Of a DNA stretch of 18,669 nucleotides, positions 3,085 through 17,773 are shown piece by piece. Position numbers and translations under genes: made by a program. The notes below the pieces were generated by a model. That model worked only from the letters and a program-made list of their open reading frames with translations. It did no database searches and was not told the origin of the DNA. This DNA comes from Candidatus Dadabacteria bacterium (GTDB lineage: Bacteria; Desulfobacterota_D; UBA1144; Nemesobacterales; CSP1-2): assembly GCA_040289575.1 (NCBI GenBank), contig PSLL01000042.1, positions 1 to 18,669 of the forward strand, given 5' to 3'. How positions within the stretch are numbered: the stretch's first letter is position 1; each line of letters starts with the position of its first letter.

Positions 3085-3142
3085 GTCATTGCGAGCGATA
3101 GCGAAGCAATCTAAAATGGGATAGTTTGTCCCTCGCAATGAC
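3085..3142. repeat. REP/RPE-like short palindromic element (GTCATTGCGAG...CTCGCAATGAC type)
   Basis: Perfect 11-bp inverted repeat GTCATTGCGAG (3085-3095) / CTCGCAATGAC (3132-3142) enclosing CGAAGCAATC and a degenerate partner GATAGTTTG. Confidence 0.75.
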
Positions 3143-3187
3143 AATTTGAATATGCTAATCTTCATTAGAATAAGGAGGCGAAAAATT

Positions 3188-4797: not shown

Positions 4798-4825
4798 AAG
4801 CTTTCCTCCTCCCTCGGAGGTTAAT

Positions 4826-4853
4826 ATGATAAGCACATAAAAGAGTTTGTCAA
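4826..4853 (-). promoter_or_regulatory. Putative sigma70 promoter for dksA
   Basis: TTGACA (4853-4848), 16 nt, TATCAT (4831-4826). The -35 box overlaps the cupin stop codon. Confidence 0.55.
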
Positions 4854-5176
4854 GAGCGATAGTGCAATGCGAGCCAGACAGTCTTTTGATTCGCATCCGT
4901 CCATTCAATTCGATGGCGTCTGTGAGCGGGGATGTGGACATAATCACCCGGTTTCATCATGCATACCTCACCATCACCCTCAAATAGGAGACCCGCGCTG
5001 CCGCTCAACATAATGACCCATTCATTATCATCCTGGTCATACCATTTTCCCCGTGGCGTCGCTTGACCTGTTGAGATTATCCGCTTCAGATTAAAACTGT
5101 CTGCCTCTAGAAGGGTTTCAAAGATCTCATCTGGGACAGAATTGGGGATATTTGAGAATATGCTGTTTGGCATCAT
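4850..5176 (-). CDS. Small cupin-domain protein
   Basis: About 108 aa. EWVIMLSGSA and MKPGDYVHIPAHRRHRIEWT match the cupin motif 2 pattern. SD-like GAGGA at about 5185-5189 favours the ATG at 5176 or 5173. Confidence 0.85.
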   Translation of the reverse strand: MMPNSIFSNIPNSVPDEIFETLLEADSFNLKRIISTGQATPRGKWYDQDDNEWVIMLSGSAGLLFEGDGEVCMMKPGDYVHIPAHRRHRIEWTDANQKTVWLALHYRS

Positions 5177-5303
5177 CAAAAGATTCCTCTCACGATTAAT
5201 GTGATCTTAGATGATAAATATAATTTATGTTCTTGCTATCTCTAAGTAGCCTAATGGAATACGTAGAGCACCTCGGGTTGAATTCAAATGGCTTACATTG
5301 GTA

Positions 5304-8300
5304 TTAGAATTTATTTCCTAATCTCCCCTCATTCCATATCGCATATATCGCTGGAATTATAATGAGCGTAAGAATTGTGGATGTCACGAGCCCCCCAATC
5401 ATAGGAGCTGCTATTCGCTTCATTACATCTGCTCCTGCACCGTGGCTCCAGAGAAGGGGGAGTAATCCTAAAATCATTGTCATCACGGTCATCATCTTTG
5501 GTCTTACCCTCTGGACAGCTCCCTCATCAATCGCTTCAGCCAAGTCCTTCCAGTTGTTCATCTTTCCTTCTTTTACTCTCTTTTTATAAGATTCATCAAG
5601 GTAGATTATCATTACCACCCCTGTTTGAGTGGCAAGTCCTGCAAGGGCGATTATCCCCACCCAGACCGCTATACTCATGTTGTAACCGAGAATATACAAG
5701 AGCCAAACACTGCCAACCATTGCAAAAGGAACAGAGAGAATAACAATTAGAGTTTCTGTGATGCTACCAAAGTTGAAATAAAGCAGGACAAATATTATAA
5801 GGAGCGTAACAGGAATCACGAATTTTAATTTCTCCTCAACTCTTAGCATAAATTCATATTGACCACTCCAGGAAATATAGTATCCAGGAGGAAGCTTTAC
5901 CTTCTCTGATACAACACGCTTTGCTTCTCTAACATAGCTCCCAATATCCCTTCCACCCGTGTCTATAAAAACATAAGCCGCTTTAGAGCCGTTTTCATTC
6001 CTTATTTCAGAAGGTCCCATTCGCATGCGAATCTGGGCCACTTGCTCAATCGGAATCTGTACTCCCACAGGAGTAGATATAAGTACCCTCTGGAGTTTGC
6101 TTATATCATCACGGAGTTCTCTTGCGTATCTTACATTTACAGGATACCTCTCAGGTCCCTCGACTGTCTGTGTTATATTCTCTCCGCCGATTGCCGAGAG
6201 GACTATGTCCTCCACATCACCGACAGTAAGTCCATAACGGGCAGCCTCTTTCCGGTTGATATAGAAATCAAGATAATATCCAGTAGTTACCCTTTCCGCA
6301 TAAACGCTTCTTGTTCCGGGAACATCCTTAACAACGGCTTCAATTTCCTTTCCTATTTCCTCAATCTTACTTAAATCCTTTCCAAAAATCTTTACACCCA
6401 CAGGGGTTCTAATTCCGATTATCAACATATCGGTTCTATTTTTTATAGGCATAGTCCATATATTAGTGACCCCGGGGAAGCGCAGAACTTGATCCAACTC
6501 ACCTATAAGCCTTTCCCAAGTCATTCCCTTTCTCCACTCGCTTTCTGGCTTTAGTGTTATAGTAGTCTCAAACATGGAAATAGGTGCAGGGTCGGTTGGC
6601 GTCTCGGCTCTTCCTATCTTTCCAAAAACGGTTTCAACCTCGGGGAACTGTTTTATTATCTTATCTCGAATCTGAAGAATCTTCGACACCTCGGTAATTG
6701 AAATCCCAGGCTGGGTTATAGGCATATCCATCAGGCTTCCTTCATTGAAGGGGGGCATAAACTCAGAACCCAGTTTAAAAAAGAATGGGATTGTAACTAC
6801 TAAGATAATAAAGGCTAGGGCAACGGTTACCCTTCTCCACTTTATTATAAACCTGACCATTGGCCCATAAACCCGGATTAAAAAGAGGCTTATGGGATTC
6901 CTCTTCTCAGGAGTGATTTTTCCTCTAATAAGAATTGTTATCAAAGCGGGGGTAAAGGTTATAGAAAGAAGGGCGGCGAAGAACATCCCGAAGGTCTTTG
7001 TGTATGCAAGGGGTTTAAATAGTCTTCCCTCTTGAGCCTCTAAGGTAAATACAGGAATGAATGAAACCACTATAACAAGGAGTGCAAAGAATATGGGTTT
7101 CCCAACCTCCTTTGAGGCATCTATCACCACTTTTAATCTGTCCCCTATTCTTCCTCTATCTTCCCAGTGTTCAAGCCTCTTATGGACGTTCTCTACAAGT
7201 ACTATAGCAGCATCAACCATCGCTCCTATGGCAATGGCTATACCACCGAGAGACATTATGTTGGATGTGATTTTCATATAATACATAGGGATAAATGAAA
7301 AAAGTATTGCAAAAGGTAGGGTAAAAATAATCACCAGTGCCGACCTAAAATGGAAGAGAAAAAGGATACATACAAGGCTTACAATGATACTCTCCTCAAC
7401 CAGAGTGTGGGTAAGCGTTCTTATGGATTTCAAAATTAAATTTGACCTGTCGTAGGTGATGACAAGTTTTACTCCTTTTGGAAAAGCAGGTTCCACTTCT
7501 TTTAATTTTTCTTTTACCCCATTTATGATATTAAGTGCGTTTTCCCCATATCTCATAACAACGACTCCACCTACAGTCTCTCCTTCACCATTAAGCTCAG
7601 CAATCCCACGCCGAATATCGGGTCCAAGACGAACATCAGCAATATCTTTTATAAGAACTGGTGTTCCCGTTCCTTTTCCATCTACCGATACGGCGATATT
7701 CCTTATATCATCGAGCGATTTTATATATCCTATTCCTCTAACTATATATTCCCTCTCAGTAGCTTCTACTACCTTTCCTCCTACATCATTGTTGCTCATC
7801 CTAATTGCGTTAATAACAGTCTTTAAAGGTACATTATAAGCAAGGAGTTTGTTAGGATCTACATTTACCTGATACTGTTTTACAAACCCTCCCAAACTCG
7901 CAACCTCTGCAACCCCGGGCACACTCCGAAGCCAGTATCTTAAATACCAGTCGTTAAATGAGCGAAGCTCGGCAAGATTATGTCTTCCCGTTTCATCCAC
8001 CAGGGCATATTGAAAGACCCACCCAACACCAGTAGCATCAGGACCAATTATGGGAGTAACCCCTTCGGGGAGTCTTCCCTGAATCCCACTCATATATTCA
8101 AGCACACGACTTCTTGCCCAATAAAGATCGGTTCCATCCTCAAAGAGAACATAAACAAAGGAGAAACCGAACATAGATTGCCCTCTTACAGCCTTCACTT
8201 CAGGGGCCGAAAGGAGAGTCGAAACTATAGGATAGGTAATCTGATCCTCTACTAAATCCGGACTTCTTCCAGGCCACTCCGCAAAAACTATCACCTGAAC

Positions 8301-8432
8301 GTCTGATAGGTCTGGTATTGCATCGAGCGGCACGCGTTTTAAAGCCCAGAGACCCCAGACCGTAAGAAAACCAACTATAAGAAAAACGATGAATCTGTTT
8401 CTGGAGAAATATTCAATTGTCTTCTCTATCAT
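5304..8432 (-). CDS. cusA: CusA/SilA family heavy-metal (Cu+/Ag+) RND efflux permease
   Basis: 1042 aa. LDAIPDLSDVQVI, GPDATGVGW, TM4 GAMVDAAIVLVEN and RVRPKMMT. Met residues sit at positions matching the E. coli CusA periplasmic Met triad (LMDMP, PISMFET, NRTDML). Confidence 0.93.
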   Translation of the reverse strand: MIEKTIEYFSRNRFIVFLIVGFLTVWGLWALKRVPLDAIPDLSDVQVIVFAEWPGRSPDLVEDQITYPIVSTLLSAPEVKAVRGQSMFGFSFVYVLFEDGTDLYWARSRVLEYMSGIQGRLPEGVTPIIGPDATGVGWVFQYALVDETGRHNLAELRSFNDWYLRYWLRSVPGVAEVASLGGFVKQYQVNVDPNKLLAYNVPLKTVINAIRMSNNDVGGKVVEATEREYIVRGIGYIKSLDDIRNIAVSVDGKGTGTPVLIKDIADVRLGPDIRRGIAELNGEGETVGGVVVMRYGENALNIINGVKEKLKEVEPAFPKGVKLVITYDRSNLILKSIRTLTHTLVEESIIVSLVCILFLFHFRSALVIIFTLPFAILFSFIPMYYMKITSNIMSLGGIAIAIGAMVDAAIVLVENVHKRLEHWEDRGRIGDRLKVVIDASKEVGKPIFFALLVIVVSFIPVFTLEAQEGRLFKPLAYTKTFGMFFAALLSITFTPALITILIRGKITPEKRNPISLFLIRVYGPMVRFIIKWRRVTVALAFIILVVTIPFFFKLGSEFMPPFNEGSLMDMPITQPGISITEVSKILQIRDKIIKQFPEVETVFGKIGRAETPTDPAPISMFETTITLKPESEWRKGMTWERLIGELDQVLRFPGVTNIWTMPIKNRTDMLIIGIRTPVGVKIFGKDLSKIEEIGKEIEAVVKDVPGTRSVYAERVTTGYYLDFYINRKEAARYGLTVGDVEDIVLSAIGGENITQTVEGPERYPVNVRYARELRDDISKLQRVLISTPVGVQIPIEQVAQIRMRMGPSEIRNENGSKAAYVFIDTGGRDIGSYVREAKRVVSEKVKLPPGYYISWSGQYEFMLRVEEKLKFVIPVTLLIIFVLLYFNFGSITETLIVILSVPFAMVGSVWLLYILGYNMSIAVWVGIIALAGLATQTGVVMIIYLDESYKKRVKEGKMNNWKDLAEAIDEGAVQRVRPKMMTVMTMILGLLPLLWSHGAGADVMKRIAAPMIGGLVTSTILTLIIIPAIYAIWNEGRLGNKF

Positions 8433-8446
8433 CTTTTCTTACCTCT

Positions 8447-10012
8447 TTATCTAACATTTAAATCAAAATTCTCATTCACAGGCGGTTTTCCGGGCACAAG
8501 AGCCCTAACCCCCAGAGTCCAACTCCCACTCATAGGAATATCCAATTTCCCCATATAGATCCCATCTCCAACATGATTTGCTTCACCGGTGCTTCTCATT
8601 TCAGACATTCCGGGCATTGCGGGCATAAGGATGGTGAATTTAACCTTTGCATCCATAATCGGCTTACCTTCGGGATCGGTGAGCTTAAACTTGAAAGCAG
8701 TTTTTCCTGATTGAGGAGGTGTTGGGTCTGTGGAGAATGAGATTTTAATGTTACTTTTTCCATTTATCTCACCTTCACCGACGGCAACAGTCTCTTTCTT
8801 GCCTCCACCAAAAGCCTGAAGAGCCGCTTTAAGCCGACTTTCAGAGTCTACTAAGAATACAGCGCTTCTTACGACCTTTTCTCCTGCTTTCAATCCGTCC
8901 ACCACTTCATAATACCCTTCGGTCTTTTGTCCGACCTTAACTTCCCTTGGCTCGAAGTATCCATCTCCTGAGGCGATAAACACGAATTTTCTCTCCCCTG
9001 TGTCAATTACAGCGTCCTCAGCTACGGAGAGCCTCTCACCCAAGTCGGTTTGGAGTGTTACGTTGGTATACATCCCGGGCTTGAGTTTGTTGCCCGGGTT
9101 TGGAAATTCAAACCTCACCTTTGCGGTTCTAGTGGTTGTGTCAACAGTAGGATAGATATACATAACATTTCCTATAAAGGTTTCACTCGGATAATAGGAG
9201 AATTCAAGGGTTGCCGTATCTCCCTCTTTAATCAGAGGAAGTTCATACTCATAAACGTCTGCAATAACCCATACGGTTGATAAGTCCGCTATCTGAACTA
9301 CATTCTCGCCTTCTGATATATGCATCCCGGGAAACATCATTCTTTTTGTAATATAGCCGTTCATGTGGGAATATATGGTCATGTACGTAATCGGTTTTCC
9401 AGTCTTCTCAACCCTTTTCAATTCATTCTCAGGAATGTCCCAGAGCTGAAATCTCTTCCGTGTGGCCTCAAGTAGGGAACTTGCCCCCGATGATATTTCA
9501 GAGAAGGGACTTTTACCAAGGTCATCATTTGCCTTCAGGGCAATGAGATACTCTTCCTCGCTTGAAACCAAATCAGGACTATAAACAGTAAAGAGCGGAT
9601 CCCCGCGTTTTACATACTGCCCTTCATATACGGGCATGTCCTTTATCCAACCACTGAACTTAACGTGCACATAATCTATTTTTCTCTCATCCACCTCAAC
9701 AATCCCTACGGTTCTAATGTTTCTTACAAGTTTTCTAAGAGAGACCTCTCCGGTTTTTATACCTATCAGTTGCTGCTTCTGCGGATTTATCTCTATACCT
9801 ACGAACTCAGGAGGGTCTTGGTTTTCCTGCATTTGTCCTTTGGTTCCGCTTCCGTGTTGCATCCCTTGCATTCCTTGAGAAGAACTTGTGACTATGTTTT
9901 TTTCTTGTTCTTTTCTCTTTGATTTCATTAAGACATATGGGAGGGTAAAGATTAGAATAAGTAGGGTCAAAGCTGTTAAGGCCCTCAGTTTAATTATCCT
10001 TTTTTTCGTCAT
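8447..10012 (-). CDS. cusB: CusB-like RND periplasmic adaptor with C-terminal YtkA/FixH-like Met-rich domain
   Basis: 521 aa. N-terminal anchor, GMQGMQHG, YSPDLVSSEEEYL, IADLSTVWVIADVYE, IYPT...TRTAKVR, LKPGMY and FLVDSES, then about 100 extra residues with MPAMPGM and MSGSW. SD AAGGAGGT. Confidence 0.88.
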   Translation of the reverse strand: MTKKRIIKLRALTALTLLILIFTLPYVLMKSKRKEQEKNIVTSSSQGMQGMQHGSGTKGQMQENQDPPEFVGIEINPQKQQLIGIKTGEVSLRKLVRNIRTVGIVEVDERKIDYVHVKFSGWIKDMPVYEGQYVKRGDPLFTVYSPDLVSSEEEYLIALKANDDLGKSPFSEISSGASSLLEATRKRFQLWDIPENELKRVEKTGKPITYMTIYSHMNGYITKRMMFPGMHISEGENVVQIADLSTVWVIADVYEYELPLIKEGDTATLEFSYYPSETFIGNVMYIYPTVDTTTRTAKVRFEFPNPGNKLKPGMYTNVTLQTDLGERLSVAEDAVIDTGERKFVFIASGDGYFEPREVKVGQKTEGYYEVVDGLKAGEKVVRSAVFLVDSESRLKAALQAFGGGKKETVAVGEGEINGKSNIKISFSTDPTPPQSGKTAFKFKLTDPEGKPIMDAKVKFTILMPAMPGMSEMRSTGEANHVGDGIYMGKLDIPMSGSWTLGVRALVPGKPPVNENFDLNVR

Positions 10013-10046
10013 TTTAACCTCCTTTGCCGACGATTGATTCTTAACC

Positions 10047-10074
10047 GTAGGGGCAAACGGCTGTTCACACTTAC
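10047..10074. repeat. Degenerate GTAG-family REP-like palindrome
   Basis: GTAGGGGCAAAC-GGCT-GTTCACACTTAC. Arms match at 8 of 12 positions and start with the GTAG tetranucleotide. Intergenic between the tolC-like gene and cusB. Confidence 0.5.
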
Positions 10075-10091
10075 AAAGGCACGAGCATAAA

Positions 10092-11351
10092 TCACTCCGT
10101 CAACTCTACCCCCGCAATCTCCTCAATCCTTGCCAGAGCCTTCTCGTACTCAGCAAGTTGGGTATAGTATGAAAGCTCGAAGTTAAAGAGCGTGACAATA
10201 TTGTCTAGAAGCGTAAGGAAATCAATTTTTCCAACTTCATAACCTGCGATGGCAGAGTCAAGCGAGAGAGTGGCTTGTGGAATTATCCCTTGGGAGTAGA
10301 GGCCTAGGAGTTTCTCCGACGTCTTAGCTGTAATGTATTTATCTTTTACATCAAAGAAAAGATTTAAGTTCGTGTTGTTGTATTCCTCTTTCGCCTCTTT
10401 AAGCTGAGACATCGCTTCTTCGACTCCGAATCTTTCTTTTCTCCAGAAATAAAGCGGGACTATAAATCCAACCCTTACCTGCCACATATCGGCAAATGGC
10501 CCCTCATTTGTAAACTTTCCTCGATCAAACCAATCAAACTCCGCCATAAAATCAGGCAAATACCCTTTCTTTGCGAGTTCTAGGGCTTTGTTGTTTCTTT
10601 CAATAAGATCGCTCTTTGCTTTAAGCATTGGACTCTTGGTCTCTGTGAGTTTGTAAAGTTCATCTAATGAGAGTCCAAGTTCAGACTTTTTCACCTCTTC
10701 GGGTTTTCCAAGAGGGAAATCGGGCGGGCGGTTAAGAATGCTCCTTATCTTGGCTTCTATAATCTCTTTCTTCTGGTTTAAAAGCTCCAGTCTCTCGATA
10801 AATCCTGAAACTTCTACCTGAGCTTTTATTACATCCTGCTGTATACCCTTTCCGACAGAATATTTGGTTTCTGCGATCTTTACGAATTTCTCAATAAGTT
10901 CCTTATTCTTTGAAGTGATCTCTATTGACTTATCTGCCAAATACCAATCATAATAAGCTCCCTTGAGGTCAGCTATAACCCTTCTCATAGTAGCTTCTAG
11001 AAACTGTTCATCAGCCTTGGCCTCTTCTTCTGCGATTTTTCCTTTAAGAGAGAGTTTGCCAGGAAATGGAAACTCCCAAGAAGCGGAAACCCCAACCTGT
11101 GAAAAGTCATCTTTTCCAAGTGTGAGTTTGTCAAATCTGACATTGGTATAGTTAACTCCTATCGTGGGGTTTGGAAGCGTGCTTACCTGAGATGGGCGCT
11201 TAGTTGAAGCCTCCCATTTAGCCCTTGCTGCCTTTATTTCAGGGTTATTGGATAGAGCTTCGTCAACGAGGGATTTAAGGGTTGTGCTCTCCTCCGCAAA
11301 AGCATCAAGCCCAATTGAGGTTATGGCGATTAGTATTAAAACCAATCTCAT
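10092..11351 (-). CDS. TolC/CusC/CzcC family outer-membrane efflux protein
   Basis: 419 aa. Signal peptide, ALSNNPEIKAA, LPNP, PFPGKLSL, YSVGKGIQQDV, YLPDF and YEVGKIDFLTLL (two OEP repeats). First gene of the CBA order. SD AAGGAGGTG. Confidence 0.92.
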   Translation of the reverse strand: MRLVLILIAITSIGLDAFAEESTTLKSLVDEALSNNPEIKAARAKWEASTKRPSQVSTLPNPTIGVNYTNVRFDKLTLGKDDFSQVGVSASWEFPFPGKLSLKGKIAEEEAKADEQFLEATMRRVIADLKGAYYDWYLADKSIEITSKNKELIEKFVKIAETKYSVGKGIQQDVIKAQVEVSGFIERLELLNQKKEIIEAKIRSILNRPPDFPLGKPEEVKKSELGLSLDELYKLTETKSPMLKAKSDLIERNNKALELAKKGYLPDFMAEFDWFDRGKFTNEGPFADMWQVRVGFIVPLYFWRKERFGVEEAMSQLKEAKEEYNNTNLNLFFDVKDKYITAKTSEKLLGLYSQGIIPQATLSLDSAIAGYEVGKIDFLTLLDNIVTLFNFELSYYTQLAEYEKALARIEEIAGVELTE

Positions 11352-11366
11352 CTTACACCTCCTTAT

Positions 11367-11403
11367 AAAGCCCCTTCACGCTAAAGCTTTGAAGGGGCTT
11401 TTT
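11367..11403. promoter_or_regulatory. Perfect 12-bp hairpin immediately upstream of the tolC SD (attenuator/terminator-like)
   Basis: AAAGCCCCTTCA (11367-11378) / TGAAGGGGCTTT (11390-11401), 11-nt loop. The GC stem is followed by UUUAU on the minus strand and T5 on the plus strand. Confidence 0.65.
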
Positions 11404-11460
11404 CCATCCTCTTTTCGTCCATGATTGCTAATTTCTCTCTAGTTTTCACTAAGAGACAAT

Positions 11461-11504
11461 AAAGAAATAAGAAAAGCGGTGATAACCATTAGGGTTAATC
11501 ACCG
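11461..11504 (-). terminator. Intrinsic terminator-like hairpin after the leader ORF
   Basis: Minus-strand RNA CGGUGAUUAACC-CUAAU-GGUUAUCACCG (11 bp, one bulge) followed by CUUUUCUUAUUUCUUU, 27 nt past the stop at 11532. Confidence 0.65.
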
Positions 11505-11531
11505 AGCAGAGATTAAGCAGCAGAGTGGAAA

Positions 11532-11924
11532 TTATAGTAAAAGGGATGAGTTTGCCAGGAATAAATCAGGCGGTCGGTATTCTGTTTTTAGTGCAAGATT
11601 TAAGGAAAAATTAGAGATTGTATTGATTTCTAAGATAGGTATATCAAATGCTAGAGGATATAAAACAATGTTCTTTACTATATGGCTGTTGGGAGCATTA
11701 AGAACCGCATCGTAACATACGCATGCTTTATGATCCATTATACCAGTGATTTTGTAAGTACTTGTTGCAGCTTTAGCGCCGGAAATTTTATTCGGCTGGC
11801 TTGCATGGCAGTTTTTCATATTCATATTCGGAACGGCACTGCCACGGGAGTAACAGACACCTGGACCAACCCATGTATAGCAGAAGATTACGCTAAGAAC
11901 TAGGAAAAGACTCAAGTATTTCAT
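11532..11924 (-). CDS. Exported/membrane-targeted Cys/His/Met protein with C-terminal RPP; candidate metal-sensing leader (DUF2946/CruR/CutF- or CzcI-like)
   Basis: 130 aa from the ATG at 11924. Signal-like MKYLSLFLVLSVIFC, MNMKNCH, MDHKACVC and terminal EYRPPDLFLANSSLLL. Same strand as, and directly upstream of, the efflux operon. Confidence 0.7.
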   Translation of the reverse strand: MKYLSLFLVLSVIFCYTWVGPGVCYSRGSAVPNMNMKNCHASQPNKISGAKAATSTYKITGIMDHKACVCYDAVLNAPNSHIVKNIVLYPLAFDIPILEINTISNFSLNLALKTEYRPPDLFLANSSLLL

Positions 11925-11941
11925 AGGATGACAACGAATAT

Positions 11942-11970
11942 ACACTAAATAAGCTAAGTTTCAAAGTCAA
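11942..11970 (-). promoter_or_regulatory. Putative sigma70 promoter for the leader ORF / cus operon
   Basis: TTGACT (11970-11965), 17 nt, TAGTGT (11947-11942). Predicts a transcription start near 11935. Confidence 0.55.
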
Positions 11971-12011
11971 GTATAAACCTAATATTAACCAAGGATAGAA
12001 AAGGAATAATT

Positions 12012-12662
12012 TCAGCCTAGATTCTTGATTGTTTCAACACTAATCATACCTAAACTATCTACAACCAAATCAGCGATTTGAAATTCTTTCTGCTCTAGTC
12101 TCTTATCCGGAACTGCGATGCAGAACATCCCCGCACCCTTTGCGGATTTTACTCCGTTAATCGAATCCTCGATTACAACACATTCCCTTGTCTCGACCCC
12201 CAATCTCTTTGCGGTGTAGATATAAATGTCGGGATGGGGTTTTCCAAGCTCAATAAAATCCCCGGGGACAACCACAGAGAAAAATTCTCTGAGTGAGAAC
12301 TTATCCAAGACGAAATTTATGACTCTAATCGGAGAGCTTGAGGCAAGGGCCAAAAGGAAGCCACTCTCTTTAAGCCTTCTAAGAAGGGTTAGAAGCCCGG
12401 GCATAAGCCACAATTCTTTTTCATATAAACCAAGCAGTATCTCGATTCTTTCGGCAATAATCTCTTCAACTGTTTCAGTCAGGTTGAATGTCTCTCTCAT
12501 TAGCCTTCCGGAATCATTTTGGTTTAATCCCACTATCTTATCCCTGTATGTGGGATTATAACCTATGCCCCTCTTTGCAAGCAGTATTCTTTCTGCCTTC
12601 TCCCAAAGTGGCTCACTATCTATCATAACCCCGTCCATATCGAATATAACAGCTTTAATCAT
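12012..12662 (-). CDS. HAD-superfamily hydrolase, subfamily IA (beta-PGM/sugar-phosphatase-like)
   Basis: 216 aa. Motif I FDMDGVMIDSE, motif II ASSS, motif III GKPHPDIY and motif IV IEDSINGVKSAKGAGM. Confidence 0.92.
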   Translation of the reverse strand: MIKAVIFDMDGVMIDSEPLWEKAERILLAKRGIGYNPTYRDKIVGLNQNDSGRLMRETFNLTETVEEIIAERIEILLGLYEKELWLMPGLLTLLRRLKESGFLLALASSSPIRVINFVLDKFSLREFFSVVVPGDFIELGKPHPDIYIYTAKRLGVETRECVVIEDSINGVKSAKGAGMFCIAVPDKRLEQKEFQIADLVVDSLGMISVETIKNLG

Positions 12663-12752
12663 TGTTGAACCATCTCTTTCTCGGCGTTTCTTGAGATATT
12701 ATACGTTAATTACTCCTCAAAGAGTCGTTTATTATCTCTTGAGTTTCCAGTC

Positions 12753-12781
12753 TTGACAATAGAGCGGGTAAAAACTATCCT
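12753..12781 (+). promoter_or_regulatory. Putative sigma70 promoter for the PCYCGC gene
   Basis: TTGACA (12753-12758), 17 nt, TATCCT (12776-12781). Confidence 0.6.
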
Positions 12782-12859
12782 TCTATCCATTGGTTTAGGT
12801 GTTCATTTATAAGTAAGTAGAAATAAAATAAGAAGTGTTTTATCGGAGGAATAGTAGAT

Positions 12860-13345
12860 ATGAAAGCATCCATAAATTTTAAAAGGCAAGCCCTATTAGG
12901 CACAATTACGGCTCTTTTTATTGCTGGGTGTCTGACGGCTTATACTATTGTGTTTAAAAAGGATAACAAAGCGGCTCTGGACACCTCTCCCCTAGAGGCC
13001 TCTACGATAAAGCTTCCAAAGTACTTCGATACGGCTCCCCCTGAAATAAAGGAAGCCTATGAGTTTGCCCTTTCAGGACCCGATGTGCTTGAGCACATGG
13101 CATGTTACTGTGGATGCAAAAGGATCGGACACAAAAGCAATAAGAGCTGTTTTATAAATAGGGTAAATGAAGACGGATCAATCGTTCTCGATGAACACGG
13201 TACTATGTGCCATATATGTCTAGACGTTGCACTCACGACAAAGCGTTTAATAGCACAAGGAAAATCCCTTAGAGAAATCCGGAAATTCTTAGACGAAAAA
13301 TACGCCGGAAAGCCTTCTACCGATACCCCGTATTCTCCGGAGTAA
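12860..13345 (+). CDS. PCYCGC-motif family membrane-anchored protein or lipoprotein
   Basis: 161 aa. AYEFA...PDVLEHMACYCGC...GHKSNKSCF...DEHGTMCHIC. N-terminal hydrophobic segment with lipobox-like IAGC (Cys24). SD GGAGGA. Confidence 0.82.
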   Translation: MKASINFKRQALLGTITALFIAGCLTAYTIVFKKDNKAALDTSPLEASTIKLPKYFDTAPPEIKEAYEFALSGPDVLEHMACYCGCKRIGHKSNKSCFINRVNEDGSIVLDEHGTMCHICLDVALTTKRLIAQGKSLREIRKFLDEKYAGKPSTDTPYSPE

Positions 13346-13433
13346 TGGGGAAATTAATATATAGCATTTTTATTTAAAAAATCTCCATTTTCTATGATCT
13401 CTATGACTAAAATAATTAATTCGGGAAACCATA

Positions 13434-14000
13434 ATGAAGGGTTTTGATTTATTTGTTAAGCTGGTCGTGTTTGCGGCGATTGTGATTCTTCTCGGTCTTC
13501 TTGGTTATGCGGTTTTTGGAAATAAGGTGTTCTCAAAATCCTCTCCTCTTATTGGACACGAAGCGCCAGAGTTTACACTCGAACTCTTTAGTGGAGATAA
13601 ACTGAGGCTCTCGGATTTAAGAGGAAAAGCCGTTCTCCTAAACTTCTGGGCGTCATGGTGTATGCCCTGTAGGGACGAAGCATCCGCACTTGAGGCATCT
13701 TGGAAAAGGTACAAAGATAAGCCGGTAGTCTTTGTTGGTATAGATGTGTGGGACGACAAAGACGGTGCCCTTGCCTACATAAAGCAATTCGGCGGAGGGT
13801 ATATGAATGGAATAGATCCGAAGGGTGAAATAGCCGTTGACTACGGGGTTGGCGGGGTACCTGAGACATATTTCATTAACACATCGGGGAAAATAGTGGA
13901 TAAATATACAGGACCACTCACAGAAGAGATGATTGATCAGTTCCTGGGAAAAGCACTTTCATCATTGCCACTAAGCGGGCTAACTAAAGAAGGCGGTTAG
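13434..14000 (+). CDS. TlpA/ResA/CcmG family thiol-disulfide oxidoreductase
   Basis: 188 aa. N-terminal TM, APEFTL, LRGKAVLLNFWASWCMPC and YGVGGVPETYFI (cis-Pro loop). Confidence 0.92.
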   Translation: MKGFDLFVKLVVFAAIVILLGLLGYAVFGNKVFSKSSPLIGHEAPEFTLELFSGDKLRLSDLRGKAVLLNFWASWCMPCRDEASALEASWKRYKDKPVVFVGIDVWDDKDGALAYIKQFGGGYMNGIDPKGEIAVDYGVGGVPETYFINTSGKIVDKYTGPLTEEMIDQFLGKALSSLPLSGLTKEGG

Positions 14001-14007
14001 TTTAGAG

Positions 14008-14502
14008 ATGATTATCAAGGTTCGTATTGGAATGGTTTTTTACATAATGGCTTCGGTAGCATTCATATTGGGGCTACTTATCTCGAACTCCATAGCAGAT
14101 GATATTGATAAAGAGACCCGCGAGATTTCTTATCTCCTTATGTGTCCTGTGTGTGAGGGACAGACCGTGGCGGAGTCCAATTCCCAGCTTGCCAAACAAA
14201 TGCGAACAATAATAAGAGAGAAACTCCAAGAAGGGAAGTCCAAAGACGAGATAATCGCCTACTTTGTAAGCCGCTATGGAGAAGCAATACTTGGCGCTCC
14301 ACCTGCAAAAGGGGTAAACTGGATTCTTTGGACGCTGCCCGCCCTTTCATTATTAGTTGGAGGACTTATAATAGGGCTATTTCTCTATAAATTAAAAGAA
14401 GATAGAGAAAAATCTAAGAAGGAATCTCGAAAACCGCCAACCCAGTTCGAACCAGAATACATAGAAAAGCTCAACAAAGAGCTAAGAGAGTTTGAATCTT
14501 AG
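14008..14502 (+). CDS. ccmH: Cytochrome c-type biogenesis protein CcmH/CycL (N-terminal redox domain)
   Basis: 164 aa. LMCPVCEGQTVAESNSQLAKQMR, GKSKDEIIAYFVSRYGEAIL and LWTLP plus a TM helix. Starts 7 nt after the tlpA stop. Confidence 0.88.
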   Translation: MIIKVRIGMVFYIMASVAFILGLLISNSIADDIDKETREISYLLMCPVCEGQTVAESNSQLAKQMRTIIREKLQEGKSKDEIIAYFVSRYGEAILGAPPAKGVNWILWTLPALSLLVGGLIIGLFLYKLKEDREKSKKESRKPPTQFEPEYIEKLNKELREFES

Positions 14503-14603
14503 AAATCCCTAAAAATAAAATGTACTCATATCTAGAGAAAGCCTCTTCAATTTATTTTCTTTCCTCTAATTCCAATATAGGACTTTAGTTTTTAAACTCA
14601 GCG

Positions 14604-16160
14604 GTGACGCTAATGACTATATCACCAAAATTAAAACACACAAGTAAAGGGACAACCACTACTATAATTCTTGTAGTTTACTTAACCTATCTTTTCACAC
14701 TTGTTCTTAAGCCTTTCACATTCTCTTTACCTATATCGATTTCTCTAAGTGAGATGTACTACTATGATTTGGAAAACCTATCTACTAGTGTCAGTTCTTT
14801 TGTATGGAATTTTATTATAAATATATTACTTTTTATCCCACTGGGTTTTCTCCTCTGTGTTTTACCAAAGGTCTCAGAAAGAAGATGGTTTATTAAAATT
14901 ATTCTTGCTACCCTTTCGGGATTTATTCTTAGCTCTATAATCGAATTTGCTCAATTATTCCTACCACGTGATTCATCTCTAGCGGATATTATTGCAAATA
15001 CCACAGGCTCACTCATTGGGGCGTTTGGTGCGTCATTCTACTACAAAACACTAACTGGTTTAATCCGTAGATGGTGGTTTTGTGTTAAAAGAGGCAGATT
15101 TCTATCAACCCTAATTGTTATATACAGTGCCTTGCTCTTTGTATTCTCTAACTTTCCGATCCTACACACTGATTTTAGCAACTGGGATCCAAATTTCACA
15201 TTCCAGATAGGAAACGAACCAACGCTAGATAGGCCATGGCTTGGAAAGATTTACTTAGTCGCTATATATAGCGTTGCTCTCCGTCATAAAGATGTCGTCT
15301 CCAATTTTAAAGTAGGTCCTTTTCGTGACTACTCAGAGTCCAGTGATCGAGTCAATCTTGTAGCATTTTACAACTTTTATGAAGGAGCCGGAGCAATTGT
15401 TCATGATACCTCGTCTTTTGGGAAACACCTGGATCTAGCAATTCAAGATACCTCTAAGATTAAGTGGCTAACCCCCAATGGCATAGTATTTCTAGAGGGT
15501 ACAATTATTAGAAGTCAAAATCCTGCTTATAAGCTCTTCTATAGTCAGATACTGAGATACAATCGCCTTACTATCGAAGTCTGGATTGCTCCTACTGACT
15601 TAACTCAGGTATTTCACGATGGACCAGCCCCCATAGTTTCCTTTTCACGAGACACCGGTTTTCGCAACTTTACACTCGGTCAATCACAAAAGAATGTCTC
15701 TTTTCCCCTGCGTACCCCTATTTCACCATTAAATGGGATGTATATATACCTATTTACCAAAGACAATCCTTTGACAACTGATATTCAGCACTTGGTTGTT
15801 ACTTATAGAAACGGTATTGAGAAACTCTACATTAACAGTGTAGAGATTAAGTCAACTATTTTAGATGCCAGCAATAATTTATTGAACCTTGTAGGTGTAG
15901 GACTTGGAGGTAGGTGGACTTATTGTTTGCTGTTTCTCTTCCCAATTGGTTTTTTATCTTATACCGCCCTCTCAAGGAGTGTTATGGACAAAATAAAGGT
16001 GATTCCACTCTCTATTTTAACTGGATTTAGTCCTTTAACACTCATTGAAATTTTTCAGGTGCTCAAGGTTACTAGACCTTTTGATCTAAATCTTCTGTAT
16101 ATGGGACTATTCGTTATTTTCGCATCCGTACTAATAAGTTCTGCCATAGATAAGTCTTGA
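14604..16160 (+). CDS. VanZ-family membrane protein with an inserted LamG/ConA-like jellyroll domain
   Basis: VanZ motifs NILLFIPLGF and IEFAQLFLP.RDSSLADIIANTTG. Soluble LamG-like segments (LVAFYNFYEG, LTIEVWI, HLVVTY...LYIN) and C-terminal TMs resembling a second, degenerate VanZ (LFLFPIGF, IEIFQ). Start uncertain (GTG 14604 or ATG 14613). Confidence 0.78.
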   Translation: MTLMTISPKLKHTSKGTTTTIILVVYLTYLFTLVLKPFTFSLPISISLSEMYYYDLENLSTSVSSFVWNFIINILLFIPLGFLLCVLPKVSERRWFIKIILATLSGFILSSIIEFAQLFLPRDSSLADIIANTTGSLIGAFGASFYYKTLTGLIRRWWFCVKRGRFLSTLIVIYSALLFVFSNFPILHTDFSNWDPNFTFQIGNEPTLDRPWLGKIYLVAIYSVALRHKDVVSNFKVGPFRDYSESSDRVNLVAFYNFYEGAGAIVHDTSSFGKHLDLAIQDTSKIKWLTPNGIVFLEGTIIRSQNPAYKLFYSQILRYNRLTIEVWIAPTDLTQVFHDGPAPIVSFSRDTGFRNFTLGQSQKNVSFPLRTPISPLNGMYIYLFTKDNPLTTDIQHLVVTYRNGIEKLYINSVEIKSTILDASNNLLNLVGVGLGGRWTYCLLFLFPIGFLSYTALSRSVMDKIKVIPLSILTGFSPLTLIEIFQVLKVTRPFDLNLLYMGLFVIFASVLISSAIDKS

Positions 16161-16208
16161 AATTAAGAAGTCATACTAAGCAAATTATGGATTGAGACCA
16201 AGATTAAT

Positions 16209-16236
16209 TTGACAAGTAGAAAAAGGCGCCTACTAT
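16209..16236 (+). promoter_or_regulatory. Putative sigma70 promoter (distal)
   Basis: TTGACA (16209-16214), 16 nt, TACTAT (16231-16236). Confidence 0.45.
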
Positions 16237-16412
16237 GGCTGAAGGTCTCTTAGCCTTCATAGATCCCTGGGACCTAATAAAACAGCTGTTATTTTAGAGC
16301 GGATTGCCGTCTATCGAAATCAGGATAAATTTAACTGGATGGTGATAATTGACGTTCCTCTCGGGCAAGAACTACATCCTCTATTAAATTTATATATTCT
16401 AATTACCTTTAC

Positions 16413-16441
16413 TTGCATCCATTAGCATTTACGGGTATAAA
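16413..16441 (+). promoter_or_regulatory. Putative sigma70 promoter for the YncE-like gene
   Basis: TTGCAT (16413-16418), 17 nt, TATAAA (16436-16441), about 36 nt before the GTG at 16478. Confidence 0.45.
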
Positions 16442-16477
16442 ACAGGAAAAATAAAGACATTAGGGGGCAACTAAAAG

Positions 16478-17737
16478 GTGAAATATCAATTCGATTATCC
16501 ATCTTCACGGAAACTAAGATCTCACAAATATATCCGCGCTGAACTCATAAGGAAAAACCTGATAAAATTTGGTGGAATTGTCTTGTTCCTCATTCTGACC
16601 TTGGTGATATTGTGCCATGTGGGCAGTGCCTTAGCAAAGTCCGATTCTACCTCGGTGCCAGGGGTGATGACTGTGCCGGGAATGCCACCAGTAGTGGATC
16701 CAAACAATCTCTATAGCGAGGCATCTGCTGGCCGGCTCAGTCCAGCGGTTGCCGACGCACTGCAGCGCGTATACGTCCCCAACGTGCGGTCGAATGATGT
16801 TTATGTGATTGATCCGGCTACGCTCAAGGTTGTGGATCGCTTCAAGGTTGGCAAGAACCCACAGCACGTGGTTCCATCCTGGGACCTGAAGACTCTCTGG
16901 GTGGCAAACAACGCAGAGGGCCGCACAAACGGAAGCCTCACACCTATTGACCCTAAAACAGGTAAGCCGGCTCCCGCCATCGCGGTGGACGACCCATACA
17001 ACATGTATTTCACGCCGGACGGCCAATCGGCGATTGTGGTGGCTGAGGCACTCAGGCGGCTCGACTTCCGTGATCCACATACTATGGCGCTTCAGATGTC
17101 TCTCCCGACCCCGCAGTGCGCGGGCATCAACCACGCTGATTTCTCTATTGATGGACGGTACGCCATCTTCACATGCGAGTTCAATGGCGGACTGCTAAAG
17201 ATTGACCTTGTAAACCGCAAGGTGCTTGGCTACCTAAGACTCTCGAAAAGGAGCATGCCACAGGACATCCGCATCTCGCCTGATGGAAAGGTCTTTTATG
17301 TGGCCGATATGAGAGCCGACGGCGTGTTTATAGTGGATGGCAACACATTGTCCAAGGTTGGTTTCATTCCAACAGGCATCGGAACGCATGGGCTCTACCC
17401 AAGTCGAGATGGAAAGAAGCTCTATGTAGCCAATCGTGGCTCACATAAGATTCACGGGCCACCGCACGGCAAGGGCAGTGTATCTGTTATTGACTTCGCC
17501 ACGTGTAAAGTCGAGGCGACCTGGCCTATTCCGGGTGGAGGGAGTCCAGATATGGGCAATGTAAGTGCCGACGGAAAACAGCTCTGGCTCTCGGGACGCT
17601 ATGATAATGTCGTCTATGAGATCAATACCGCGACTGGCAATGTAAAGAGCATCCCTGTAGGCAAGGAGCCACACGGGCTTACTATATGGCCCCAACCGGG
17701 GCGCTACTCGCTTGGTCATACGGGCAACATGCGTTAG
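16478..17737 (+). CDS. YncE/YVTN-type beta-propeller repeat protein, exported or membrane-anchored
   Basis: Repeated blades VYVPN...VYVID, SPDGKVFYVA, SRDGKKLYVAN, SADGKQLWLS and IPVGKEPHGL. Hydrophobic N-terminal segment ending in ALA. Start codon uncertain. Confidence 0.85.
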   Translation: MKYQFDYPSSRKLRSHKYIRAELIRKNLIKFGGIVLFLILTLVILCHVGSALAKSDSTSVPGVMTVPGMPPVVDPNNLYSEASAGRLSPAVADALQRVYVPNVRSNDVYVIDPATLKVVDRFKVGKNPQHVVPSWDLKTLWVANNAEGRTNGSLTPIDPKTGKPAPAIAVDDPYNMYFTPDGQSAIVVAEALRRLDFRDPHTMALQMSLPTPQCAGINHADFSIDGRYAIFTCEFNGGLLKIDLVNRKVLGYLRLSKRSMPQDIRISPDGKVFYVADMRADGVFIVDGNTLSKVGFIPTGIGTHGLYPSRDGKKLYVANRGSHKIHGPPHGKGSVSVIDFATCKVEATWPIPGGGSPDMGNVSADGKQLWLSGRYDNVVYEINTATGNVKSIPVGKEPHGLTIWPQPGRYSLGHTGNMR

Positions 17738-17773
17738 AACGGGCGATTGTGCAGGGGACACATCCTACATTAA

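Follow-up and report, generated by a model that had tools for sequence, protein, structure and literature searches.

The window, by which we mean the whole stretch of DNA analysed here, comprises 18,669 nt of a Candidatus Dadabacteria bacterium (GCA_040289575.1, contig PSLL01000042.1, positions 1 to 18,669); the operon, its leader and the associated signals described below all lie on the minus strand, (-), with coordinates written from high to low. The operon (11351-5304) encodes a TolC-like outer-membrane factor (11351-10092; Pfam OEP, PF02321, 3.8e-52), a CusB-like adaptor with a C-terminal YtkA domain (10012-8447; HlyD_D23, PF16576, 3e-74; YtkA, 3.1e-19) and a CusA/CzcA RND pump (8432-5304; ACR_tran, PF00873, 6.7e-241), the last of which also matches TIGR00914 at 1207 bits against a cut-off of 701. 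With outer-membrane factor, adaptor and permease all present, the controlled genes are a CusCBA/CzcCBA-type HME-RND operon. Metal efflux pumps are usually described as being under the control of two-component systems or MerR/CsoR-type regulators. Here the flanks are free of regulators, as the initial annotation had remarked: Pfam identifies no regulator gene adjoining the ORF or the operon in the window, and none among the neighbouring ORFs scanned at five genome loci. At the contig end, 5.8 kb off and behind five opposite-strand genes, there is a truncated histidine-kinase gene (17774-18667).

Upstream of the tolC gene lies an ORF of 130 codons (P0001; 11924-11532, ATG at 11924, TAA stop at 11534-11532), preceded by a sigma-70-type promoter (11970-11942) with a -35 element TTGACT (11970-11965), a 17-nt spacer and a -10 element TAGTGT (11947-11942). 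The predicted mRNA leader of this ORF is short, about 12 nt, and carries no Shine-Dalgarno (SD) sequence. Downstream follow a terminator-like hairpin, a second, GC-rich hairpin and the tolC SD; these elements, together with the promoter, the ORF, its motifs and its R-P-P, had been pointed out in the initial annotation, and the sequence bears each of them out. A generic consensus scan found five promoter-like sites where 4.9 were expected, which is chance level, and did not list the terminator hairpin; we therefore placed weight on conservation instead. The element TTGAC[TA] occurs at the equivalent position in 17 of 17 distinct upstream regions of homologues, in which the distance from the -10 element to the ATG is 13-25 nt and an SD is mostly absent. 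The output of the consensus scan also contains an overlapping alternative promoter, TTGAAA-16-TATATT.

The N-terminus of the ORF product is hydrophobic (residues 1-23) and signal-like, with an invariant Cys15, and suggests that the protein is exported. Two motifs rich in potential ligands follow, MNMKNCH (residues 34-40, including C39-H40) and MDHKACVC (residues 63-70), and the Cys and His residues of the product may bind metal. Cysteine conservation, which had been anticipated for the CxC pair C68-x-C70, holds in part: C70 alone is invariant, and alignments show CC in most relatives in place of CxC. The protein ends in a conserved tail, E115-L130 (EYRPPDLFLANSSLLL; codons at 11582-11535), in which the Pro-Pro codons occupy 11573-11568 and are followed by exactly 11 residues; in the window these belong to an R-P-P (R117-P118-P119, 11576-11568) in the local context Y-R-P-P-D. 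A first homologue search with the ORF recovered 21 homologues, and the family as now defined comprises 74 representative clusters and is present in 51 of 120 genomes of the phylum. The dN/dS of the ORF against a same-genus copy is 0.29, indicating purifying selection, while the middle of the protein evolves fast (dN/dS 0.3-0.5). AlphaFold2 gave no confident fold, with a mean pLDDT of 42 and residues 18-120 below 50.

Similarity searches placed the protein in no described family. P0001 has no Pfam match (at E<=0.01) or NCBIfam match, so that the affiliation with DUF2946 (PF11162) first proposed for it finds no footing: a Pfam scan at E<=1 matched this model in 2 of 72 family members, with a best E of 0.018 (the model cut-off is 23.7 bits), and the model had no match in the bacterium's own genome at E<=10. 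The protein also lacks the CXXC or CxxxC of that family, having C68-V-C70 with only C70 invariant, and no RAPP or Pro-rich motif lies within a few residues of its end. The DUF2946-like spacing between Cys and Pro, 45 residues in CruR, does recur, the distance from Cys to Pro-Pro being 46-49 residues in 48 of 63 members and 47 in the window; the outliers bear extra Cys residues in the linker. A relationship to CzcI (PF28244), the other possibility raised at the outset, was likewise undetectable, since hhalign gave the 72-sequence family alignment 2.0% against CzcI alone and 2.7% against a 34-sequence CzcI alignment, with the overlap confined to the signal peptide. The nearest ESM Atlas clusters are unnamed, and the nearest one bearing a Pfam family is CzcI, at a score of 0.93, a level often reached by chance. 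Among the literature listed, no item on arrest or leader peptides also dealt with cusCBA, heavy-metal efflux or Dadabacteria; as the family is not searchable by motif, an earlier description of it may exist. Taken from sequence comparison, the ORF is supported as a real, conserved, fast-evolving, predicted-exported Cys/His protein of an unannotated family.

Pro-Pro is present in 63 of 72 family members and lacking in 9, and the distance from Pro-Pro to the stop is exactly 11 residues in 62 of the 63 that have it. The initial annotation had read the R-P-P as a RAPP/RGPP-like arrest motif, and here its expectation divides: the prolines are conserved, the arginine is not. The residue preceding Pro-Pro (n=63) is D in 25 members, R in 13, S and G in 8 each, H in 3, Q and A in 2 each, and T and K in 1 each; because Asp is the commonest residue, and the window has no Ala or Gly between Arg and Pro-Pro and 11 residues rather than three beyond it, we do not regard the motif as RAPP-like. 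The tail codons vary freely at synonymous sites (for example TCC/AGC for Ser), the tail dN/dS is about 0-0.13, and dS in close pairs resembles that of the rest of the gene; the tail is thus under selection at the level of the peptide, as judged from codon comparisons. In the bacterium's own genome the tail is confined to two paralogues, the other two pattern matches being frames of 8 and 19 codons. The stop codon is TAA in 40 of 42 loci, and the next base is T in 36 of 42. In some loci only, a GGAAUA/UAUUCC hairpin can be drawn around the RPPD codons.

These patterns bear on two explanations of the tail. According to one, the ORF is untranslated, and what is conserved at its 3′ end is an element of the DNA or RNA, for example a promoter within the ORF (CTGGCA-16-TATAAT, 11558-11531); this site appears in the consensus scan, and in most loci inspected TATAAT is formed by the last Leu codon and TAA-T. 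The reading frame is nevertheless open in 42 of 42 loci, the -35 element is not conserved, four loci have TTTAAT, and neither the free synonymous variation nor the low tail dN/dS would be expected of such an element. We consider it very improbable, and have rejected this promoter as the cause of tail conservation; it may serve as a minor promoter. According to the other, which was the model of the initial annotation, a RAPP-like arrest at R117-P118-P119 leads to attenuation, or to Rho-dependent termination as in CruR. The near-invariance of Pro-Pro, the Cys spacing of 47 against 45 in CruR and the excess of C over G from the Pro-Pro codons to the hairpin are in its favour, and xPPD and DPP are EF-P-dependent polyproline pause motifs. 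However, members of the RAPP-like class (ApcA/ApdA/ApdP/CruR) are reported to carry R-[A/G]-P-[P/G] near the C-terminus, with the Arg essential and arrest lost in an AAPP mutant (PMC12992588), whereas only 13 of 63 family members have R before Pro-Pro. The 11 residues beyond Pro-Pro are moreover conserved equally to it and would not yet have been made at the moment of arrest, and the Pro-Pro codons lie about 61 nt from the terminator stem; we therefore find that a pause at or near the stop codon fits better than arrest at the R-P-P, which we judge unlikely.

The RNA beyond the stop codon has its own conserved features. Directly after the stop lies a C-rich, G-poor spacer, TTTCCACTCTGCTGC (11531-11517), most of which a ribosome positioned at the stop codon would cover. 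In the 42 loci, C makes up 38% and G 6.5% of the 15 nt that follow the stop; behind 1574 long ORFs of the bacterium's own genome the figures are 17% and 22%. The complementarity of the spacers to the SD consensus averages -5.4 kcal/mol against -2.2 kcal/mol in genome controls. The adjoining anti-SD-like segment, CUUAAUCUCU (11517-11508), corresponds by homology to the 5′ arm of P1, a conserved long-range helix that covaries in relatives. In the window, both the MFE and the centroid structure predicted for positions 11534-11345 pair the segment with the tolC SD region (11362-11352); this fold has a z of -3.7, and 0 of 200 shuffles were as stable. Between these arms lies the terminator-like hairpin P2, CGGUGAUuAACC...GGUUAUCACCG (11504-11477), with dG -13 kcal/mol, z -4.9 and 0 of 200 shuffles as stable. 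The sequence 3′ of the hairpin is CUUUUCUUAUUUCUUUAUU, and a U-rich tract extends to about 11457. A stable GC-containing hairpin followed by a U-tract, CUUUUCUUAUUU, is the signature of an intrinsic terminator, and termination is predicted on this basis. Relatives show a homologous hairpin and T-run; as helix 3 of the alignment, P2 has changes on both sides in 6 of 11 pairs, with 82.9% of cells paired, and 19 of 42 loci count as terminator-bearing by a crude rule (dG<=-8, with 5 or more U among the 10 nt that follow).

Two further hairpins are specific to the window. The weak middle hairpin, UCUCUUAGU/ACUAGAGAGA (11459-11433; dG -8.1, z -2.4), has a 3′ half that resembles the P1 3′ arm of relatives, and from 11505 to 11317 the homology with the same-genus locus is interrupted. 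The strong GC-rich hairpin (11400-11368; dG -20.3, z -4.85) lies just 5′ of the tolC SD and is absent from the related loci inspected. The tolC ribosome-binding site itself (11364-11349; SD AAGGAGG at 11364-11358, ATG at 11351-11349) has a predicted pairing probability of 0.96 over its SD, wholly with positions +20 to +24 after the leader stop.

Across the family, helices P1 and P2 together have 81.4% of cells paired, against 30-48% in slid controls, and 14 of 24 pairs changed on both sides, with the observed value reached by 0 of 500 shuffles for four of five measures; both helices were defined from per-sequence MFE structures before pairs were counted, so that the structure derives from the same sequences on which it is scored. 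RNAalifold on the raw MAFFT alignment returned only 6 pairs, because linker lengths vary. The predicted pairing of the next gene's SD averages 0.84 (32 of 36 above 0.7), compared with 0.64 in control genes (n=248; 48% above 0.7), and should be read with the caveat that folding predictions for RNAs of 150-300 nt are soft and that control SDs are often predicted paired too. The SD partner lies <=33 nt from the leader stop in 18 of 36 loci, and at locus L031 the predicted partner of the GGAG/AUG region of an oxidase gene is the 8 nt that follow the stop. We found no consistent conserved anti-terminator pairing between the 3′ end of the ORF and the terminator arms, and no Rfam match at E<=1 in 10 loci (65 kb).

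The tail could also be explained as a signal for sorting or a tag for degradation at the C-terminus of an ordinary exported protein, the hairpin being an ordinary terminator. In its favour are a hydrophobic C-terminus (FLL, LLL or FLI) of constant length and the presumed breakdown of the CutF and CruR products once exported. A general signal should, however, be found on many proteins, whereas in the bacterium's own genome only two paralogues carry the tail; our search also recovered no longer or fused carriers of the protein or its tail, which is weak evidence, and the spacer and SD features would go unexplained. We regard this explanation as quite improbable.

The genomic position of the family is nearly uniform. 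In a set of 42 unique loci, in which the next same-strand genes downstream of the family ORF were classified, the next gene is TolC-type in 34; in 5 the next genes are operon accessory genes before the end of the DNA, in 2 a multicopper oxidase follows and no pump is found, and 1 is too short to classify. The ORF is the first gene of a metal-homeostasis operon in 41 of the 42, although these loci are related and the counts therefore overstate independence. The operons it heads are Cus-like, Czc-like with a CDF gene, or of the multicopper oxidase type, and because they differ, a general sensor fits better than a pump subunit.

This arrangement invites comparison with CzcI, and with the view that the protein acts in trans as a small, CzcI-like periplasmic metal-binding protein (a pump quencher, a metallochaperone or a sensor ligand), its tail being a motif for docking or C-terminal recognition by, for example, a PDZ protease or a pump subunit. 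The placement that had been called CzcI-like is indeed seen, with a small Cys/His protein, of exported type as judged from its hydrophobic N-terminus, directly upstream of the outer-membrane factor gene of an HME-RND operon (czcC in the case of CzcI), and both have an RpoD-type promoter. In Cupriavidus metallidurans pMOL30, monocistronic czcI and czcICBA transcripts are reported, czcI2 is leaderless, and CzcI is described as quenching CzcCBA (PMC10127602); that the nearest analogue before an RND operon was published as a trans-acting pump quencher also tells against a cis role, and in that account CzcI functions in trans whereas we propose action in cis. CzcI proteins share the layout of the family, including a tail that is invariant, contains Pro and extends as far as the stop (PPDRPQWxxLA), and alternative hairpins span the CzcI stop codon; the motifs YCQHE, HLGHHEH, DCGxCH and PPDRPQWxxLA differ from those of the family. 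The purifying selection on the ORF and the ESM Atlas proximity to CzcI, at a score often reached by chance, accord with a trans role, and the terminator might merely keep leader mRNA in large excess over pump mRNA; such a trans role could coexist with one in cis. Yet hhalign, at 2.7% and with only the signal peptide aligned, detects no homology to CzcI, no fold is predicted for the protein, the family also precedes multicopper oxidases in loci that have no pump, and a trans role gives no part to the post-stop spacer, the TAA-T context or the SD pairing. We consider action in trans the main rival to the explanation given next, though on the doubtful side.

The explanation we prefer is that the ORF is a cis-acting, metal-sensing nascent-chain leader of the CutF/CruR kind, belonging to a separate, undescribed family and pausing ribosomes at its own end, to which we assign a probability of roughly 0.45. 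In this scheme, the near-consensus promoter would give an almost leaderless mRNA, and the 130-aa product would be exported co-translationally by way of its hydrophobic N-terminus, so that its Cys and His residues could meet metal while the chain is still ribosome-bound. The tail (PP-DLFLxNSSLLL), lying in the exit tunnel, would slow either release at the UAA stop or the final steps of elongation, for a time set by metal binding or by pulling on the exported part. A ribosome parked at the ORF end would cover the C-rich, anti-SD-like spacer and abut the downstream helix, thereby freeing the SD of the next gene (tolC in the window) and perhaps carrying the transcript past, or protecting it at, the terminator region; without the pause, most transcripts would stop at the hairpin or retain a paired tolC SD. 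The family and its position, the selection on the tail peptide, the fixed spacings, the spacer composition, the covarying RNA helices and the predicted SD pairing are what the sequences show; export, metal binding, the pause, its site and the downstream step that it controls are what we infer, and control may act through attenuation at the terminator, through SD unmasking or not in cis at all. A ribosome on the stop codon reaches about 10-13 nt beyond it; since the window has its anti-SD segment from +17 and its terminator stem from +28, direct masking is marginal there. The family tail ends in Leu or Ile, unlike known Pro-ending termination-stalling peptides, which counts against the cis model, as do the nine members that lack Pro-Pro. 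The initial annotation's interpretation survives in outline, namely a conserved leader heading a metal operon, with a near-invariant Pro-containing tail and conserved RNA structure, while its RPP, CxC and DUF2946 specifics do not.

The design of the family parallels those of CutF, CruR and CzcI without detectable homology. CutF is described as a small Sec-exported Cys protein encoded by the first gene of a copper-detoxification operon of Rhodobacter capsulatus, with a Pro-containing C-terminus and an unstable, rapidly degraded product, and a stem-loop hides the SD of the gene that follows (PMC9973294; preprint 10.1101/2025.02.05.636593). The family shares with this account a small Cys protein heading a metal operon, a Pro-containing C-terminus and a downstream structure that hides the SD, here by prediction, and two family loci precede a multicopper oxidase as cutF precedes cutO. 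It has no detectable sequence homology to CutF, however, and differs from CutF as reported in having a single invariant Cys (in CC or CxC) rather than CxxxC, Pro-Pro with 11 conserved residues rather than PPP at the very end, and, in most loci, a terminator-like hairpin between leader and next gene.

CruR (Bp2923) of Bordetella pertussis, a DUF2946 protein described as poorly structured, has 45 residues between CXXC and RAPP (PMC9426467); RAPP is set three residues from the C-terminus and its two Pro codons are where arrest occurs, and CruR is reported to act via Rho, independently of its signal peptide, and to repress an uptake system (PMC9426467, PMC12992588). Like CruR in these reports, the family is an upstream ORF, its product predicted to be poorly structured, with a Cys about 45 residues before Pro-Pro and an excess of C over G at the ORF end, and the genes downstream of CruR are controlled after transcription initiation. 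Unlike it, the family has a non-conserved R, a long tail, an intrinsic-terminator-like hairpin, and efflux or oxidase targets.

A different parallel concerns the proposed site of the pause. TnaC, a cytoplasmic peptide of 24 residues, senses tryptophan in the tunnel and ends in Pro-UGA, and of its residues Trp12 and Pro24 the former is a key residue about 12 positions before the C-terminus. The family resembles it in that a key residue keeps a constant spacing of about 12 residues to the C-terminus. The proposed block of release at its own stop, with the ribosome covering the RNA downstream, is a further likeness to TnaC and other termination-stalling leader peptides (PMC8429421, PMC8450073, PMC11890864). 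Unlike TnaC, the family ORF encodes 130 aa of export type and ends in Leu-UAA, and its stall is only proposed.

A more specific version of the cis reading can be formulated tentatively, and we think it rather unlikely in its full form: a third independent metal-sensing leader family, in which the last 13 residues (Pro-Pro and the 11 that follow) block or delay release at UAA, the exported Cys/His part reports periplasmic metal, and the parked ribosome sits on a silencing anti-SD spacer. To our knowledge, the characterised copper-sensing nascent-chain upstream ORFs are CutF and CruR only, both of DUF2946. The locus described here defines a separate family that shares their overall design but is set apart by a different tail, conserved over a much greater length, and by a conserved RNA module; its members stand first in metal-resistance operons of three kinds. 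Action in cis would mean that ribosome-based sensing of metals emerged, or changed past the point of being recognised, on more than one occasion; the tail would then offer a new arrest sequence to study, and the regulation of HME-RND pumps that have no regulator gene beside the operon would be explained. By analogy, the invariant CzcI tail and the hairpins spanning its stop hint that the classic czc system may share this logic, which suggests a testable reinterpretation of a long-studied system. Should the third-family reading prove true, ribosome-based control free of transcription factors would govern RND, CDF-RND and multicopper-oxidase operons, and would span much of a phylum known mainly from metagenomes.

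The 130-aa leader open reading frame (ORF) of the efflux operon is a genuine gene whose family carries no annotation. Its product has no match in Pfam or NCBIfam, and a word-indexed search yielded 21 relatives among 30 candidates, none of them named; a profile search returned 74 out of 1.84 billion representatives at E ≤ 0.001, of which 39 were at ≤ 1e-10. Of 120 species genomes from the window's phylum, 51 contain the gene, at one to three copies each; all 14 genomes of the taxonomic family to which the window belongs are among them. Two of the related loci are labelled Candidatus Dadabacteria, and others Spirochaetia or Deltaproteobacteria. The window's own genome encodes a second copy on contig C51 (11014-11397, forward strand; 1492-1887 of locus L020), which ends in EYTPPDVFLLNSSLLL and is separated by 162 nt from a downstream TolC gene, 81% identical to the TolC of a TolC-CDF-adaptor-RND operon (locus L004). 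A 90-aa database entry (P0009), identical to the window ORF over residues 1-86 and with a different end (…KNI-SSSI), is probably an assembly variant that arose at a contig end or by a frameshift. Nei-Gojobori counts for seven pairs gave whole-gene dN/dS ratios of about 0.2-0.45 (0.082/0.281 for the window and its same-genus relative) and ratios of about 0-0.13 for the last 16 codons; in these codons, dS is similar to that elsewhere in the gene for the five closer pairs and lower for the two most divergent. As the tail combines low dN/dS with synonymous codons that differ between loci, including TCC/AGC serine switches, its conservation acts on the peptide and not on an overlapping DNA element.

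Sequence and translation bore out every coordinate of the initial annotation. On the minus strand, a promoter (TTGACT at 11970-11965, a 17-nt spacer and TAGTGT at 11947-11942) is followed by a short leader between the −10 element and the ORF that carries no Shine-Dalgarno (SD) sequence, and then by the ORF itself, from the ATG at 11924 to the TAA at 11534-11532. The product has a hydrophobic, signal-like N-terminal segment, C39-H40, C68-V-C70 and the C-terminal end EYRPPDLFLANSSLLL. Beyond the stop lie a 15-nt pyrimidine-rich spacer, a terminator-like hairpin with a U-rich tract (11504-11477; ΔG −13 kcal/mol, z −4.9), a weak hairpin (z −2.4) and a strong hairpin (11400-11368; ΔG −20.3, z −4.85), after which come the SD sequence AAGGAGG and the ATG of the first of three genes, encoding a TolC-like outer-membrane factor, a CusB-like adaptor (8447-10012, minus strand) with an extra C-terminal YtkA-like domain (residues 421-501), and a CusA/CzcA pump (TIGR00914, 1207 bits). 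The YtkA-like domain also occurs in loci L001-L003 and is absent from the adaptor of the CDF-containing operon type. No transcription factor was found adjoining the leader ORF in the window, or among the neighbouring ORFs scanned in the five genome loci. The only regulator-type gene in the window encodes a histidine kinase (HisKA and HATPase_c; 17774-18667, minus strand); it is cut by the contig end and lies 5.8 kb from the leader, with opposite-strand genes intervening. Right after cusA (4222-5179, minus strand) come a small cupin gene and a gene for a DksA/TraR zinc-finger protein of 241 aa, of which about 120 residues form an N-terminal extension; as listed, its ORF overlaps the cupin ORF (4850-4947), so that translation of DksA may in fact begin further downstream. 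A cluster running divergently from the leader promoter region (12860-14502, plus strand) encodes PCYCGC-motif, thioredoxin/AhpC-TSA-like and CcmH-like proteins; it is syntenic in the same-genus relative and may be linked to copper or thiol handling.

The protein's conservation is concentrated at a few positions. In an alignment of 72 sequences (the window protein and 71 representatives, after removal of three fragments of 63-92 aa from the 74), Cys15 within the hydrophobic N-terminus, Cys70, Pro118, Pro119 and parts of the tail are nearly invariant. The initial annotation had singled out an RPP motif and its distance to the stop; the Pro-Pro pair (63/72 within the last 20 residues) and the distance (exactly 11 residues following in 62 of 63) are conserved, and the arginine is not, as the preceding residue is D in 25, R in 13, S and G in 8 each, H in 3, Q and A in 2 each, and T and K in one each. 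Eight of the nine members without Pro-Pro retain one proline and the tail, and the ninth is truncated. The last Cys and Pro-Pro are separated by 46-49 residues in 48 of 63 sequences, and the outliers carry additional linker cysteines. AlphaFold2 with a 25-sequence alignment gave a mean pLDDT of 42, with residues 18-120 below 50. Within the genome the tail is confined to the two paralogues, and a search for longer proteins bearing it found none, which is weak evidence; judged by sequence, the tail is not a general signal. In several loci (e.g., L003, L016 and L020), the Glu-Tyr (GAAUA) and Leu-Phe (UAUUC) codons around RPPD are complementary and fold into a small hairpin with the proline codons in the loop; the stem is longer in L020 through a Leu>Val change and absent from His-His variants.

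This design is shared with CutF and CruR, which the excerpted texts describe as exported, poorly structured DUF2946 proteins encoded by the first genes of copper operons, with a Cys motif and a C-terminal Pro motif (PMC9973294, PMC9426467); in CruR, 45 residues separate CXXC from RAPP (PMC9426467). Membership tests nevertheless failed: only 2 of 72 members match DUF2946, with a best E of 0.018, and by the definition in the excerpted part of PMC12992588 the Pro-Pro motif is not RAPP-like. The initial interpretation is partly supported: it recognised the kind of element, and its assignment to the CutF/CruR family and its choice of critical motif did not hold.

We extracted 48 family copies, 42 of them unique. 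A TolC-type gene lies downstream on the same strand in 34 of 42 loci; in five, the DNA runs out after small accessory genes of the kinds seen in the other operons, and in one only 113 nt of downstream DNA are available. In the remaining two, L027 (ORF 1498-1878, minus strand) and L031 (1435-1875, plus strand), a Pfam-confirmed multicopper oxidase gene follows immediately, the same pairing as in cutF-cutO. Operon types comprise TolC-CusB(YtkA)-CusA; TolC-CDF-adaptor-RND, which is also that of the window's paralogue; and types with one to three inserted small genes for a 143-aa lipoprotein, a 122-152-aa protein or a 125-aa Cys/Met/His protein. Direct adjacency of leader ORF and TolC is the commonest arrangement. 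In the same-genus relative (L001, 6176-6916), the lipoprotein gene and a longer TolC N-terminus lie between leader and tolC; the window has no lipoprotein gene, and homology is interrupted between 11505 and 11317 by 187 nt unrelated to L001. This stretch holds two additional hairpins and a mini-ORF of 13 codons (11422-11381), the end of which is similar to the L001 TolC N-terminus; its sequence suggests a deletion or rearrangement. Among plasmid-borne CusA proteins, the closest (60% identity) is encoded in L021 (CP114558.1, a Candidatus Manganitrophus plasmid), where the annotation splits the TolC and adaptor genes into pieces, with the adaptor's YtkA/FixH part as a gene of its own, and lists no leader homologue upstream.

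The main rival explanation is a CzcI-like role in trans, which we consider less likely and which may coexist with a role in cis. CzcI is encoded upstream of czcCBA, with monocistronic and read-through transcripts, and its reported function is to quench the pump in trans (PMC10127602, in part); the CutF authors place it in the same superfamily and, in the excerpted text, describe it as without a proline motif (PMC9973294). Starting from pMOL30 CzcI we built a 34-sequence alignment, in which the tail PPDRPQWxxLA is invariant up to the stop and parallels the tail of the present family, which likewise runs to the stop. Comparing the two families with hhalign, however, gave 2.7%, over the signal peptide only, and the occurrence of the present family upstream of oxidase genes speaks against a pump-specific partner. 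In the pMOL30 czc locus (L022, 15485-15615, czcI 3′ end to czcC), the last codons, a segment just past the stop and a third segment are able to form mutually exclusive, attenuator-like hairpins, in one sequence and with a non-significant z of −1.76.

The nucleic acid around the leader ORF is also conserved. TTGAC[TA] is found in 17 of 17 distinct upstream regions, with a −10 element 16-17 nt past it, the ATG another 13-25 nt on, and the SD mostly absent. The leader ORF ends in TAA in 40 of 42 loci, and a T comes next in 36 of 42. The first 15 nt past the stop contain 38% C and 6.5% G, versus 17% and 22% after 1574 long ORFs of the window's genome, and 52% of family loci versus 4% of controls have at least five C with at most one G. 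This spacer is anti-SD-like, with a mean duplex energy with the SD consensus of −5.4 versus −2.2 kcal/mol and CTCC or CCTC in 36% versus 5.8%. In the window's subgroup, intergenic DNA conservation exceeds that of the protein, and a long-range helix, P1 (ACCUCUGC...GCAGAGGU), begins 12-13 nt past the stop and encloses the terminator-like hairpin P2 with its U-tract. In a 17-sequence alignment (three duplicate loci omitted, the window and three P1-less loci retained as misses), with the structure derived from the same sequences as were counted, 81.4% of P1/P2 cells pair versus 30-48% with slid partners, both partners vary in 14 of 24 pairs, and none of 500 shuffles matches the observed value on four of five measures. 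More distant subgroups have unrelated intergenic sequence and retain a structured region (mean z −1.96 across 42 loci, 21 below −2); the intergenic region has no Rfam match.

We then folded the intergenic RNA of each locus from the leader stop to +12 of the next gene. The predicted pairing probability of the SD averaged 0.84 and exceeded 0.7 in 32 of 36 loci, versus a mean of 0.64 and 48% for 248 SD-bearing genes of the same genome, each with 150 nt upstream. In 18 of 36 loci the SD is predicted to pair mostly with the first 33 nt past the stop, and in other loci with a local CCUCU element. In the window, the tolC SD, GGAGGUGUAAG (11362-11352), is predicted to pair with CUUAAUCUCU (11517-11508), a homologue of the P1 5′ arm, in the MFE and centroid structures alike (z −3.7); in L031, the GGAG/AUG region of the oxidase gene has a perfect complement in the 8 nt that directly follow the stop, with which it is predicted to pair. 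Such thermodynamic predictions across related loci support masking of the SD, though they are not proof of it.

The 11 residues behind Pro-Pro match it in conservation and lead at fixed length to TAA-T, with the anti-SD-like spacer beyond, which argues for a pause at or just before the stop. On these sequence grounds we think that the ribosome would pause there with the tail in the exit tunnel, as part of a cis-acting nascent-chain sensor to which we tentatively assign a probability of roughly 0.45. A ribosome terminating at the leader stop would cover the spacer, the exported Cys/His part would set the duration of the pause, and, while parked, the ribosome would keep the next gene from being silenced by the spacer and the base of the downstream helix, perhaps with a further effect on terminator read-through or transcript stability. 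The geometry of the window counts against this mechanism, however, since a ribosome sitting on the stop would not reach the anti-SD segment, which starts at +17, or the terminator, at +28, and a search for an anti-terminator found none. In excerpted accounts of the known systems, stalling on CutF opens a stem-loop concealing the cutO SD (PMC9973294; preprint 10.1101/2025.02.05.636593), and stalling on CruR blocks Rho (PMC9426467).

Our literature search found no description of this leader family, which is not searchable by motif. We regard the leader ORF as representing a new family of candidate regulators of a known type, and the Pro-Pro tail with its 11 following residues, the TAA-T stop, the anti-SD spacer and the terminator nested in a long-range helix suggest a mechanistic variant.
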